Below are positions 12 through 42,916 of a DNA stretch of 64,000 bases, piece after piece (positions within the stretch are counted from its first letter, which is position 1; the number at the start of each line of letters is the position of its first letter). Made by a program: the position numbers and the translations under genes. Below the pieces are notes generated by a model. That model made no database searches and was not told the DNA's origin. It saw only the letters and a list, made by a program, of their open reading frames with translations. Location of the stretch: sequence record NC_000866.4. One strand, given 5' to 3'. Source of the DNA: Escherichia phage T4.

Positions 12-2189
12 TTAGGCCGCAAGGGCCTTCATAGTTTTAGCGATTTGGGAAACTTCATCATCACTTAAAGAGTTGCGATAACCGATGAAGTCGGAAACAA
101 TACGGAATTTCTTGGTAAACTCAGCAACCATTTTATCACTGTTTTTTGAAGCATTATTTGATAATACATCAAAAAGATTAGTTACTGTCCAAATGTCATG
201 ACCGATGGTATCTTTTCCACCATTAAAATATACACCCTGTAATGAACTAACCATATTAGCGAGTCGTGTATATTCTTCAGAAACTTCATCTATACTGAAG
301 TACTTCATCATAAAATCTAACTCAGGATACTTGATAATTTTATCAATATATCGTTTAGCTGAACTTGAATAACCTACATACTTATCATAATCTACATCAT
401 CAAAAGCATCTACATATAAATCACGCAAAGCTTCAAAAATACATTGGCACTGACCGAGTTCTTTTACCTTTTTCTGTAAAAGCGGACGAATAACATAAAA
501 TTCATTAATGCCAATAAGATTAGCCATACGAATCAAAATATTCATAGATGGATGACAAAGAGATGTAGTACCATCCATAGAGAAAATATCAGAACGATGC
601 ATATACGCTACATAACCAGTAATTTCATCTGCTTCTGATGTGAGGCGTAAATAATTCCTCTTTTCCCAGCGCCCGTCTTTAATTTCAAACTTAAACGCTG
701 TAGCAGCTTTAGGACGAGGAGCTTTACTTTTAACTACCTTTGGAATATAACTTTTTACTAAAGCTTCAATTTCTGACAAATAATGAATGTTAACTTCATC
801 ACTTTCAAACATCGCCATAATATCAGGAAGCAAATCAATCTGCGATTCTACTTCTGGATTAATAAACAGAAGACGTTCGTTATGATGAATATTCAAAGTG
901 TTATTAAATTCACTATCATCTAACGCACGTGCTAATCCACGGACAATATTAACACGATTTTTAATATTATCAATAACGATATTAATTTTTGTTGTATTAA
1001 TACCAAACAGACGATAACTTGATGCAACGGCTGAAGTTTCATGACTTTGCTTAATGCGCTTCAGTCGAGGGTCAAGATTTACTTCATACACAACTCCCGC
1101 GTTGCATAACTTACTGTCAGGTTCAAACATGCTCTGCATCTTTTTATATGACAGATTTTTAGTCGTGAATTTGACTGAATTACTAATCATATAATCTCGA
1201 GCAGAATACCCCATCTTCATCAATTCACGATATGTGTGACGAGGAGATGTAGATTCTTTAAATCGTTTTACATCTTCATTAAATGCTTTCTCACTGAGTT
1301 CTTTAACTCGTTCAATAATATTTTTACGAGTGCGATCATCCAGTGAAAGAGCCTCGCGAGATGGAGCAATATCAAGTGAACCCATTGGAAACTTAATGTA
1401 ATTCACTTCATTGCGAATGCTTAGCCAGTTACGGTCTCTAATAACACCATCGATAGGATAAACAATACCACCGTAGATAGCATATAATCCACCACGATCA
1501 GGCCAGTATCTTTCTGGATTTACACCGTAATAGTCATCAAAATCCGGAAAATAATCAATTTCGCGGTCAAGACCATTAATGATAGCCAAATCTTTGAACG
1601 GTCGCATGATATAAGAAACTTCATAAGCAAAGTTTCTAAAGTCTTTTTCTTCAACTGGAACTACGATTTCAATACCAGTTTTATCATCTGGACCCATTTC
1701 TTTTACGAATGTAGGTTTAATCTGTGGACCATCACCATCCATGTAAGCTACATAACCACGAATTTCACCTTTATGATACGAAGTAATACTAAACGTATCA
1801 GTATAACTAAACGGAGATTTAGAACCTAAACCAAATCCGCCAATAAAGTCATTAGATTCAGCTTTAGATGAACTGAAGTATGAATTATACAACCCAGGAG
1901 AATTATCATCACCTTGAATATCAAAATCACTCATACCCGGACCAAAATCTCGACAAACAAATCGTGGGTCTAAACGTCCAGGAACTTGTATGATAAATTT
2001 TTCAGGATTTCCATTAAGTGCATGAGCATCAATCATGTTAGTAATCAATTCACGGACTACTGCGCGAATCTTGTTTGTATACAAATCAGATGACAGAATT
2101 TTAAATACTTTAGGAGATGCTGTGATGCTAAATGCTTTTGATTTAGAACCATTACCAAGAATTGTTTCTTTTTCAGTGGTGATAATCAT
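12..2189 (-). CDS. rIIA: rIIA protein, 725 aa, GHKL-type ATPase-like N-terminal region
   Basis: 725-aa [11 protein letters not shown]..., ATG at 2187-2189; length and sequence match T4-type rIIA; motif [10 protein letters not shown]. Confidence 0.93.
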
Positions 2190-2199
2190 AATTTCCTCA

Positions 2200-2403
2200 T
2201 TAATTCATATTACGCTTAATAACTTCAGCAACTTCTAGTAGTTCATCTTTAGTTGCGGTGTCGGATTGAATTTTATCTCTAATATCTTTAAAGCGGGTTT
2301 TAAATTCTTCGGCTTCTCCCATATCGAAAAAGCGTTGAATGATTCTATATTCTCGATGAACTGCTTTATCAAAAAGTTCTAAATTTACTTTATATGATTT
2401 CAT
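2200..2403 (-). CDS. hypothetical small protein (rIIA.1 position)
   Basis: 67-aa ORF packed between rIIA and gene 60. Confidence 0.6.
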
Positions 2404-2457
2404 TTCAATATCCTCATTTGCCCAATTAATTATACCACATCCTTGTGGTAAAGTAAA

Positions 2458-2990
2458 CTACTGGCTCATCCATTCTTTACGAAGGTCAGCATTATCTCCC
2501 ATGAGCATTTCAAAAAGCTCTTTCCAGTTCTCAGGAAGTTTAACAACATCATATACTGGGTTTTGAATCATCTCACGATATTCAGATTTTTCCAAAGAGC
2601 CAAGTCCCTTAATATAACGGATGCTATGTTTAGGTAGAGCATCTTTGGCACTCTCATATTCAGCGACTGTATAAAACCATTCTTGTTTTTTACCGACCTG
2701 AGCGATGATTACAGGAGTTTTGACAAAGCGAATTCGTCCTTGCTCAAACAATTCTGGCCAATTACTAAAAAATCCGAGCAGAGAAGGATAAATAGAACCT
2801 AATCCAATAATCTCTTAATTATGAGGTATTTCTATAGATAGCCCGAAGGCTATCCATCGTGATCTGCGTCTGTCATAATAGCGACATTCGCATAGTTCAT
2901 TGAAGAGGATTTAATAGAACGACGAACATTGTTCTGCAATTTATATTTTTTCATATCAACGCTAGAAGAATCAATTTTTACAAATTTCAT
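2458..2990 (-). CDS. 60: DNA topoisomerase II subunit gp60, translated across a 50-nt coding gap
   Basis: Two ORF-track pieces (2850..3041 holding MKFVKIDSS...MTDADHDG then stop; 2458..2751 holding the C-terminal part) separated by the classic bypass sequence; ATG at 2988-2990. Confidence 0.9.
2803..2855 (-). other. translational bypass (hop) element: take-off GGA, UAG stop, UUCG-loop hairpin, landing GGA
   Basis: Minus-strand sequence GGA UAG CCUUCGGGCUAUCUAUAGAAAUACCUCAUAAUUAAGAGAUUAUU GGA read directly; take-off GGA at 2853-2855, stop at 2850-2852, landing GGA at 2803-2805. Confidence 0.88.
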
Positions 2991-3351
2991 TATACACCTC
3001 ATAGAACTTTTCATCAGGAATCCAACCGCGTTTAAATTCATTAAATGCTCGGCCGAATAATTTTGAATTCACAGTTATATTATTAACTGATTTCCATTTA
3101 GCAACTCCCGTTCGTTTATAATGATCGGGGTCATATTTCGTGACGTACCATTCATATAAATTTGGTATTAATTTTACAGCCTCTGGATTTGTCGCTGATT
3201 TATTATACCATGGTTTCGCTTTTTCAAGTTCAGCTGCTTTTGCAGTAGCAGCAACAGTATTTCCAACACCAACTAATTTTTCAGTTTTAATGCGTGGATC
3301 ATTAACATGAAGACGAAAAACTTCGCCCTTTTCATTTTTAAAGCATGTCAT
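2971..3351 (-). pseudogene. mobA: mobA-like truncated homing-endonuclease remnant
   Basis: 126-aa ORF between genes 60 and 39; upstream 3352-3777 has no intact ORF on either strand. Confidence 0.45.
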
Positions 3352-3777
3352 GCCTTTAATTCCAGGAAGCTTAACACCTTTATTAACACCGCATCATTCC
3401 TTTGGGTTAAATGATCCTTTAATTAATAAGGCGCATTTACCCGATTTAACTACTTCTCATTCAACAACTTTATCTTTCATAACGTTTTTTGACCATTCAG
3501 ATACTGCTCTTTGATGGCTAAATTCTAGCAATTTCACTATAATTTGCACTAGAACGTAAACTATTTTTCAGTGTTTCAACATTCTATTCATCGCATATGC
3601 CATTTCACGATTACGATGAATTTTATATAGTAGAAAATAGTGCTAAAAAGTGTTCACGAAAAGTCATGTTTCACCAAATTTTCGTTATCATCAGAACCTC
3701 CCATTGATCTTGGAAGGATATGATGAATTTCACCCTTAAATTTAGAAACGCGGGTTTTACCCCGCACTATTAAGTCA

Positions 3778-5328
3778 TTATAGATTTTTTCGTAATTCAC
3801 CTACTGTTATCCATTTACCATTAATCTGTACTTCATCATTTTCATTTACGATAATTGTATCGCCATTTAGCTCGAAAGTAAACCACTCGCCATCTTCTTT
3901 TTCTTCAAACGCTTTTTCACCGAGAACTAGACCAGTGATTGCGCAAATATCAAATAGTTCTTTGTTTTTAAGCATATCTGCATAAGACATACCCCAACTG
4001 TTGAGAACTTTACCACGCAATGGATAACCACCGTGAAGTTCTTTATCACGAACATCAATAAGATATCCGATAGCCGAATCACCCTCAGTCAAGAAAAGAG
4101 TAGTATCAGCATCTTTACCGCAAAGATTCGCTTTGATATGTTTATGAACCTTAGCTTTAGAAGCCTTTTTAGCTGCTTTAGTTTCTGCTGCTTTTTCTGC
4201 CGCCAATTTACGAGCCAAAGCAGCTTCAATAATCGGCATTAGAATTGCTTCATTATTTAGAATATCACGTGAAATCTTTTTAGCATCAAGTTGAATATGA
4301 CTACGAATTTCGCCAAATGGAGAAGTCAAACGCTCTTTAGTTTGACGAATCAATCGCATGTTTTTCATATCACGAACAAACATAACGATAGTCAAACATT
4401 CTTTGACACGTGCTTTAGTCACATCAATTTTGAACTTACGTTTGATTTGTGGAATAAGGTCTTCACAAATATCATCCATAGCGCAGTCAATGTGATGGCC
4501 ACCATTCTTAGTATGAATGTTATTGACGTATGTTAATTGACGAAAACCATCCGGTGAACGACCAACCGCAATAGAACAATTTTCTTGCTCTTGAACAATA
4601 GCATGTTCATCATACTGCCGTGCATATTTCTTAAAATTGCCCTGAACCTTTTTACCATTAAAGGTAAATTGAATATCAGGATAAACTACAGCAAGTGTCT
4701 GGAGACGATCCAGTGTAATGTCAAGATAAACTTGGGACAGCTCATTAGTTTCAAATGACATAAAATCAGGAATGAAAGTAACACGAGTTCCTTTCCATTT
4801 TCCAGGAATATCTTCCCATGATTTATTTTCCATGCCATTTGAACAACGAACTACAATATTATTTTGACCGTCGCCAGTTTCACCGACAAACATCACAGAA
4901 AAAATGTTTGTCAAACTAGAACCAACACCGTTCATACCGCCGGTGACGCGTTCTTTATCATCACCAAAGTTACCACCTGCTTTTGGAATAGTCCATGCGG
5001 CAACAGGACCAGGAATTTCTTCACCGGTAGGTGTTTTAACCATCGCTTGTGGAATACCGCGACCGTTATCTTCAACTGTTACTTGATTGTTTTTAATAGT
5101 AACATTAATTTTATTCGCGAATTTAAACTTAGTACGAATACCTTCATCTACTGAGTTATCGATAATTTCATCAATAAGCTTAACAAGACCAGGTACATAC
5201 TGAACACTTTCCCATTTACCAAACATAAAGCGCTCATGCGTTTCATTAGCAGAAGAGCCAATGTACATGCCACTACGCTTTTTGATATGTTCAATATCGC
5301 TCAGAATTTTAATTTCATTCTTAATCAT
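3778..5328 (-). CDS. 39: DNA topoisomerase II large subunit gp39 (GyrB-like ATPase)
   Basis: ORF MIKNEIKILSDIEHIKKRSGMYIGSS..., GHKL ATPase motifs; ORF-track start is GTG at 5329-5331, ATG at 5326-5328 gives 516 aa. Confidence 0.94.
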   Translation of the reverse strand: MIKNEIKILSDIEHIKKRSGMYIGSSANETHERFMFGKWESVQYVPGLVKLIDEIIDNSVDEGIRTKFKFANKINVTIKNNQVTVEDNGRGIPQAMVKTPTGEEIPGPVAAWTIPKAGGNFGDDKERVTGGMNGVGSSLTNIFSVMFVGETGDGQNNIVVRCSNGMENKSWEDIPGKWKGTRVTFIPDFMSFETNELSQVYLDITLDRLQTLAVVYPDIQFTFNGKKVQGNFKKYARQYDEHAIVQEQENCSIAVGRSPDGFRQLTYVNNIHTKNGGHHIDCAMDDICEDLIPQIKRKFKIDVTKARVKECLTIVMFVRDMKNMRLIRQTKERLTSPFGEIRSHIQLDAKKISRDILNNEAILMPIIEAALARKLAAEKAAETKAAKKASKAKVHKHIKANLCGKDADTTLFLTEGDSAIGYLIDVRDKELHGGYPLRGKVLNSWGMSYADMLKNKELFDICAITGLVLGEKAFEEKEDGEWFTFELNGDTIIVNENDEVQINGKWITVGELRKNL

Positions 5329-42445: not shown

Positions 42446-42916
42446 TTAATCATGTTTCCACACCCCATCGGTATTTGACCAAAGTCGCTGATTATCTGAT
42501 CCTCGCCACAGCTTTTTGGTCGGAAGATTTTTCTCATACTTCCCATCAATAATAACATCAACATATTTAAGCATTTCTAGTTGTTTAATATCTTCAAACT
42601 TATATCCTGTCCACAACCAGATATCTTTCTCCGGAAATCTTGCTTTAACCCAAGAAACTAAATTTGAAATCTCTTCTCGGTTCTGTGGATAAAGTGGGTC
42701 ACCGCCGGTTAAGGTAAGGCCTTGGATATACGATTTGCTTAAATGGGACGCAAGTTCTTTAACGGTATTCATAGTGAATAACTGTCCGTTACGAGCATTC
42801 CAAGTACTACGATTATAACAACCTTCGCATTTATGCAAACATCCAGTGACGAAGAGAACGACCCTACATCCAGGGCCGTTAACGAAATCGCATGGATAAA
42901 TTCTATCATAATTCAT
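42446..42916 (-). CDS. nrdG: anaerobic ribonucleotide reductase activating protein NrdG (radical SAM)
   Basis: ORF MNYDRIYPCDFVNGPGCRVVLFVTGCLHKCEGC... with CxxxCxxC cluster; ATG at 42914-42916 gives 156 aa. Confidence 0.9.
   Translation of the reverse strand: MNYDRIYPCDFVNGPGCRVVLFVTGCLHKCEGCYNRSTWNARNGQLFTMNTVKELASHLSKSYIQGLTLTGGDPLYPQNREEISNLVSWVKARFPEKDIWLWTGYKFEDIKQLEMLKYVDVIIDGKYEKNLPTKKLWRGSDNQRLWSNTDGVWKHD

Follow-up and report, generated by a model that had tools for sequence, protein, structure and literature searches.

Gene 60 of bacteriophage T4 is the founding and best-studied case of programmed ribosome bypassing, dissected by cryo-EM, single-molecule and kinetic methods, and it shows a homing-endonuclease cassette housed inside an essential gene. 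The literature on the gene 60 bypass includes Huang (1988), Weiss (1990), the work of Herr, Wills and Atkins, Samatova (2014) and Chen (2015). Agirrezabala 2017 (PMC5462505) and Klimova 2019 (PMC6551183) belong to the same series. The bypass has been placed in a mobile cassette together with the gene for MobA (Bonocora et al. 2011; Manning & Atkins 2022), and comparable cassettes are carried by phages PM2, S16, KARL-1 and Thanatos-1. Like the T4 cassette, these are inserted at the same place in the DxD motif of TOPRIM and have UAG after take-off, a hairpin with the apex CC-UUCG-GG, and codons for take-off and landing that match either fully or by wobble; mostly, GAG is also placed 6 nt ahead of the landing codon, and the N-terminal peptide is partly conserved, with Y16, Q19, V22 and R24 kept. 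They differ in their codon pairs (GGG/GGA, GGU/GGC, GAU/GAC and GGU/GGU) and in their gaps of 43–52 nt. The mitochondrial “byp” elements of Magnusiomyces capitatus are 27–55-nt inserts with matched codons and a slow A-site codon after take-off (bioRxiv 10.1101/2022.08.31.505936). By description, they resemble gene 60 as programmed bypasses with matching codons for take-off and landing, but are of unrelated sequence, present in dozens of copies per genome, read by mitochondrial translation, and devoid of a homing endonuclease.

The stretch of DNA analysed, hereafter the window, comprises 64,000 nt of Escherichia phage T4 (NC_000866.4) and represents the start of the T4 genome, with gene 60 at 2458..2990 on the minus strand; all features described below lie on that strand. 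The neighbouring genes rIIA (12..2189), rIIA.1, mobA and gene 39 are those of the T4 map start. Within 2458..2990, 533/533 nt were identical in 13 phage T4 records, most of them at the same coordinates, so that chance is not an issue for this element, and the first 20 kb of the window matched T4 genomes at 99.7%. The locus is the type specimen of the gene 60 bypass, 100% identical and without any difference to it, and all signals were at their published positions (codon 46 GGA, UAG, 50-nt gap, GAG, landing GGA, and UUA as codon 47). In the T4T record (HM137666), gene 60 is annotated as join(2458..2802, 2853..2990) with a misc_feature “non-coding translational bypass region” at 2803..2852, which coincides with the gap read from the window. 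Sequence anatomy, identity with T4, collinearity with T2, stability and covariation of the take-off hairpin, and the boundaries of the cassette were all derived directly from the sequences compared here. The region is almost certainly the T4 gene 60 programmed translational bypass in its type organism, and nothing in the sequence argues against this reading. The first-pass annotation had called the locus an intact copy of the classic ribosome-hopping element, which is borne out by the full identity with T4 and by every published signal being unmutated. The element has been known since 1988, and finding it again in T4 adds no knowledge; the re-finding is useful as a positive control, as a reading made from sequence alone hit a real recoding signal at its exact coordinates.

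The first open reading frame (ORF1, 2853..2990, MKFVKIDSSSVDMKKYKLQNNVRRSIKSSSMNYANVAIMTDADHDG) starts at ATG 2990 and extends over 46 codons to the take-off codon GGA 2855..2853 (Gly46), after which UAG follows at 2852..2850. A second GGA, the landing codon, is located at 2805..2803, exactly 50 nt downstream of the first when measured from first base to first base, and the subsequent UUA (2802..2800) opens a frame of 114 codons, which ends with a stop at 2460..2458. This second frame (ORF2, 2458..2802 with its stop) encodes residues 47–160 (LGSIYPSLLGFF...KEWMSQ). Both the UAG interruption behind GGA and the matching GGA 50 nt further on had been pointed out correctly in the first-pass annotation. 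The take-off and landing codons, being GGA and GGA, are decodable by one peptidyl-tRNA. The non-coding gap between the two frames (UAGCCUUCGGGCUAUCUAUAGAAAUACCUCAUAAUUAAGAGAUUAUUGGA, 2803..2852) is 50 nt long, which leaves a remainder of 2 when divided by three, and each of its frames 0, +1 and +2 contains a stop; with stops in all three frames and a frame change of 2, the two halves cannot be joined by read-through or by a simple +1 or −1 shift. The gap is recorded as a misc_feature in HM137666 and its tail, 3′ of the take-off hairpin, is 79% A+U.

Of the signals in ORF1, a putative Shine-Dalgarno sequence GAGG (2997..3000, read in GATGAAAAGTTCTATGAGGTGTATAATG) precedes ATG 2990 by 6 nt and sits within the 3′-end of mobA, the overlap of mobA and gene 60 being 20 nt. 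Residues 1–30 of ORF1 are specific to the cassette, and residues ca. 31–46 are encoded by homR and homologous to T2 gp39. The cassette-specific N-terminus of 30 residues carries the nascent-peptide bypass signal KKYKLQNNVRRSIKSSS (codons 14–30, 2901..2951), which is unchanged and the same as in the nascent chain of structure 5np6; chain C of that entry, which is the nascent peptide of the take-off complex solved by cryo-EM, has the same 46 residues as the whole of ORF1. Residues Y16, Q19, V22, R24, S25, K27 and S28 within KKYKLQNNVRRSIKSSS have been implicated by cryo-EM and mutagenesis (PMC5462505, bioRxiv 10.1101/2022.08.31.505936). On the landing side, the triplet GAG (2814..2812) lies 6 nt 5′ of the landing codon with AUUAUU as spacer, and on the basis of its spacing and of the literature it is taken for a mini-Shine-Dalgarno. 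Nascent peptide, GAG, the 5′ and 3′ stem-loops and the mobA context had all been passed over in the first-pass annotation.

The take-off stem-loop AUGGAUAGCC-UUCG-GGCUAUCUAU (2834..2857) consists of a 10-bp stem, 2857..2848 with 2843..2834, closed by a UUCG loop at 2847..2844. Its predicted stability of −13.6 kcal/mol (z = −5.38) was reached in 0/200 dinucleotide shuffles, and on both strands of the window (64 kb each, 128 kb in total) only two of the 11 hairpins with a 10-bp stem and a 4-nt loop were at or below this energy. The other of the two, at about 42857..42880 on the minus strand (AACGGCCCUGGAUGUAGGGUCGUU), had −14.2 kcal/mol. In its 5′ arm, the take-off hairpin has the two final bases of codon 45, followed by GGA, UAG and CC. 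Thus, the UUCG hairpin of the first-pass annotation is present, but it had been placed in the wrong order, as following UAG, when take-off GGA and UAG are in fact contained in the 5′ arm. The apical part of the stem-loop is the A-site hairpin (PMC5462505), and having UAG within it is of mechanistic importance, as the hairpin arising in the A site sequesters the stop codon (PMC5462505). The matched GGA codons and the hairpin, on which the first-pass annotation had made its reading depend, are all in place.

Folding of the flanking sequences gave less pronounced signals. A 5′ stem-loop is predicted upstream of the take-off hairpin (2860..2899), with core pairs 2892..2889/2868..2865 and 2886..2882/2875..2871; at −10.8 kcal/mol (z = −2.13) it was equalled by 9/200 shuffles, and the predicted fold on its own is moderately supported. 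For the downstream stem-loop at 2740..2781, a candidate for the 3′ stem-loop or forward slippage barrier, the fold of 2740..2802 (−11.6 kcal/mol) was indistinguishable from shuffles (z = −0.6), for which reason no independent support is claimed for it. The roles of both are taken from the literature, and as the sequence of the window is that of T4, the published 5′ and 3′ stem-loops must be present. The 50-nt gap folded alone gave z = −1.1. A second small hairpin around GAG (AUAAUU/GAUUAU) was considered and rejected, as its fold was not supported and it would compete with pairing to the anti-Shine-Dalgarno. A scan of 2300..3900 against Rfam at E ≤ 1 matched no family, so the element has no curated RNA model there and no independent model-based call could be made.

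Joining of ORF1 and ORF2 gives a gp60 of 160 amino acids with a TOPRIM_C Pfam match. In five solved structures of T4 topoisomerase II (8yo3 and four others), whose gp39-gp60 chains are engineered constructs, residues 517–676 were 100% identical to the joined protein. Moreover, the uninterrupted gp39 of phage T2 (605 aa) is collinear across the T4 junction DHDG/LGSIY (...DADHDGLGSIYPS...), and its segment ...NIAIMTDADHDGLGSIYPSLLGFFSNW... corresponds to T4 Gly46 joined to Leu47 with zero residues gained or lost. Direct support for a single polypeptide across Gly46-Leu47 has come from mass spectrometry and in vitro translation (bioRxiv 10.1101/2022.08.31.505936, PMC6551183).

The two frames could in principle be translated independently, into polypeptides of 46 and ca. 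97–114 amino acids that assemble non-covalently in the way gp39 and gp60 do. Many GenBank records annotate two coding sequences, the program-made ORF list contains a 97-aa ORF from TTG 2751, and the same cassette did separate gene 39 and gene 60 into subunits that are translated apart. However, the ORF2 frame opens at 2814 and offers no ATG, GTG or TTG before 2751, where a start would forfeit 17 residues (LGSIYPSLLGFFSNWPE) found unchanged in T2; GAG is spaced 6 nt ahead of GGA and not of a start codon, and gp60 is continuous over 160 residues in the solved topoisomerase II structures, though these are engineered constructs. A protein-level test of the gp60 junction has already been published and favours the bypass (bioRxiv 10.1101/2022.08.31.505936). 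Separate translation of two polypeptides is considered very improbable. The statement of the first-pass annotation that both halves are found in the ORF list holds for the listed ORFs 2850..3041 and 2458..2751 as such, but the true start of gene 60 is at 2990, and the true ORF2, which lacks a start codon, runs from 2802.

Splicing of the 50 nt from the mRNA as a small intron, followed by ordinary translation into gp60, would also fit the discontinuity between DNA and protein when this is taken alone, and T4 does have self-splicing group I introns in td, nrdB and nrdD (PMC2988022, Table 1). Against this, 50 nt is far below the size of group I or group II introns and no Rfam intron was matched in 2300..3900. 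The gene 60 mRNA reportedly retains the 50 nt, as Huang et al. are said to have found in 1988. Splicing is refuted by the fully reconstituted in vitro system, in which full-length unspliced gene 60 mRNA gave the bypass product (PMC6551183), and the gap hairpin has been seen in the ribosomal A site by cryo-EM (PMC5462505), leaving the intron with an even slighter probability than the two separate polypeptides.

The whole split gene was found in only 40 of 496 related phage records, when about 455 relatives, including T2, T6 and RB27, matched only from 9 nt beyond the landing site and have a single large-subunit gene annotated there. A sensitive search with the 197 nt specific to the cassette returned 58 records, i.e. 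the 40 near-identical ones of the E. coli clade and 18 diverged cassettes in Salmonella S16-like, Acinetobacter, Proteus and Shewanella phages. Among eight representative cassettes, UAG directly after the take-off codon was kept in 8/8, the hairpin apex CC-UU(C/A)G-GG was conserved throughout, and each take-off/landing pair (GGA/GGA, GGG/GGA, GGU/GGC, GAU/GAC, GGU/GGU) was decodable by one tRNA. GAG was located 6–7 nt before the landing codon in most of the eight, including HY01, GRNsp7, S16, KARL-1 and PM2. Gap lengths among the representatives were 43, 48, 50, 51 and 52 nt, the Proteus PM2 cassette combining GGG take-off and GGA landing with a 51-nt gap, and this variation of 43–52 nt indicates that landing is independent of frame.

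Covariation was assessed in an alignment of six distinct take-off regions, those of T4, HY01, Proteus PM2, Salmonella S16, Acinetobacter KARL-1 and Shewanella Thanatos-1. Across these six sequences, a take-off helix of 12 pairs was 95.8% paired, with four of the 12 pairs changed on both sides; one covarying pair, made with the take-off codon's third base, is A-U in T4, G-C in Proteus and U-A in the others. The covariation score was reached in 0/500 shuffles, and slid registers were only 17–42% paired. With n = 6 the covariation of the take-off hairpin is supportive rather than conclusive, and it agrees with a larger published survey (bioRxiv 10.1101/2022.08.31.505936). There is next to no probability that errors of sequencing or assembly, or a mutation inactivating the gene, produced the interruption in this record. 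Legacy errors do occur nearby, as mobA has 11 extra bases and gene 39 a compensating pair of frameshifts, but at least 25 independently sequenced genomes have the same 50-nt gap, modern T4 genomes contradict an artefact, the gap recurs in the 40 records of the E. coli clade and, diverged, in the 18 from other genera, and compensatory evolution of the hairpin is unexpected of an artefact or a decaying pseudogene.

In the blastn comparison of T4 and T2, DNA homology stopped at 3911 and restarted at 2793, which delimits the whole mobA cassette as 1,117 nt (2794..3910) in place of 64 nt of T2 gene 39. The cassette consists, in order, of a C-terminal extension of gp39, mobA with an HNH Pfam match, the N-terminal extension of gene 60, homR, and the 50-nt gap at the right end. 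Without counterpart in T2 are residues 475–517 of gp39 (the 43-residue C-terminal extension) and residues 1–30 of gp60. The homR sequence repeats the displaced topoisomerase segment in re-coded form, differing from T2 in 18 of 63 nt, with 10 of 21 codons changed synonymously, and its final 9 nt (2802..2794) lie past the gap; just downstream of homR 3/336 nt differ, the DNA from 2793 on being 99% identical to that of T2. Nine homR nucleotides beyond the gap are as in clade 1 of Manning & Atkins (bioRxiv 10.1101/2022.08.31.505936). The locus thus resembles the described MobA/bypass mobile cassette in having its gap at the right end of an HNH-gene insertion, a homR highly diverged from T2, and 9 homR nt beyond the gap, and it differs in that mobA in the window is interrupted by 11 extra bases. 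In terms of DNA, an ancestral gene 39 was split by a mobA homing-endonuclease cassette, of which the gap forms the right end. According to two reports (Manning & Atkins, bioRxiv 10.1101/2022.08.31.505936; Edgell et al., PMC2988022), MobA nicks insert-free gene 39 and the whole cassette moves into T2 in mixed infections, and the gap is reported there to shield the carrier genome from nicking by MobA.

The mobA gene of the window, on the minus strand at 3340..3700, had 11 extra bases and about five substitutions in comparison to T4T. In consequence it is broken into a 48-aa HNH piece (3654..3800) and the “60.1” ORF (2971..3351), when an intact mobA of 272 aa, in the shorter version, was present in 40/41 records, among them 12 or more independent T4 genomes. 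The longer version of the window was matched at 100% only by a legacy entry of 2,561 bp (X06220.1). As mobA is intact in all modern T4 genomes, the breaks in the window are most likely legacy Sanger sequencing errors, with no real pseudogene behind them, and the window is evidently the legacy T4 reference sequence. The T4 mobA gene was called a pseudogene in a 2022 preprint (bioRxiv 10.1101/2022.08.31.505936), and this published statement probably stems from the same legacy errors. In gene 39, a compensating pair of −T and +G was observed at 4333..4362 of the minus strand, around codons 324–333 (CGATTGATTCGTCAA vs CGATTTGATTCTCAA in T4T and T2), by which gp39 residues 326–328 read LIR and not FDS; the pair is probably another legacy sequencing error. 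Residue 355 of gp39 is D in the window vs A in T4T and T2.

The ribosomal mechanism, its efficiency and the immunity to MobA are described here after published experiments. In the proposed course of events, ribosomes would initiate at ATG 2990 and translate 46 codons, upon which the nascent peptide, chiefly KKYKLQNNVRRSIKSSS, would grip the exit tunnel and stall the ribosome, its peptidyl-tRNA-Gly on GGA 2855..2853 and its A site occupied by UAG. The nascent chain has been found to form a helix in the tunnel that contacts L22 and L4 via Y16, R24 and S28, with the peptidyl-transferase centre locked in an inactive state (PMC5462505). The hairpin apex CC-UUCG-GG would then fold in the A site and block both RF1 and read-through, consistent with the guarding function described for a short A-site hairpin containing the stop codon (PMC5462505). 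EF-G reportedly treats this hairpin as a tRNA mimic, leading to pseudotranslocation, after which the peptidyl-tRNA would unpair and the ribosome slide about 50 nt without decoding, aided by refolding of the mRNA on the 5′ side; in the course of sliding, EF-G hydrolyses ca. 1.8 GTP per gap nucleotide (PMC6551183). The contact of GAG with the anti-Shine-Dalgarno and the matched GGA 2805..2803 would stop the ribosome, allowing the tRNA to re-pair and decoding to restart at UUA 2802..2800. Both the GAG:anti-Shine-Dalgarno pairing and the 3′ stem-loop have been described as aids to landing (bioRxiv 10.1101/2022.08.31.505936, PMC6551183). About half of the ribosomes may complete the hop and yield gp60, a subunit of T4 topoisomerase II with 160 aa, the published efficiencies being in the range of ca. 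50–60% (PMC5462505, PMC6551183, bioRxiv 10.1101/2022.08.31.505936), with ca. 60% in vitro and a half-maximal value at 24 °C (PMC6551183).

A function of the gap beyond immunity to MobA, either as a temperature- or physiology-sensitive throttle on the supply of gp60 or through a role of its own for the released 46-aa ORF1 peptide, is regarded as unlikely. If true, it would explain the near-total nucleotide conservation of the gap among E. coli-clade cassettes; such an extra function has already been raised in the literature and is no novelty of this window.

Two deviations from the T4 gap and hairpin were observed among the relatives. Salmonella phage GRNsp7 (ON720975.1, ca. 539..589) has a 51-nt gap with an extra T between GAG and GGA (GAGATTTATTGGA) in a cassette that is otherwise identical to that of T4, whereby the spacing of GAG to the landing codon is 7 nt and ORF1 and ORF2 are in the same frame; either natural variation or a homopolymer sequencing error may account for this. 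In HY01 and pSe_SNUABM_01, both of the E. coli clade, the take-off hairpin has a natural variant form (GGCUAUCCAUUG vs GGCUAUCUAUAG) in which a G.U pair of the stem is replaced by G-C, giving a 12-bp stem of −19.6 vs −14.7 kcal/mol, and the second in-frame UAG of the gap is lost. With regard to annotation, gene 60 appears in most GenBank and RefSeq records of the cassette as two coding sequences, often named “hypothetical protein” or “DNA topoisomerase (x2)”, which in many phage records amounts to a systematic gap for a recoded gene. In some records ORF2 is annotated from a downstream start codon, and a join with bypass annotation is given in few.
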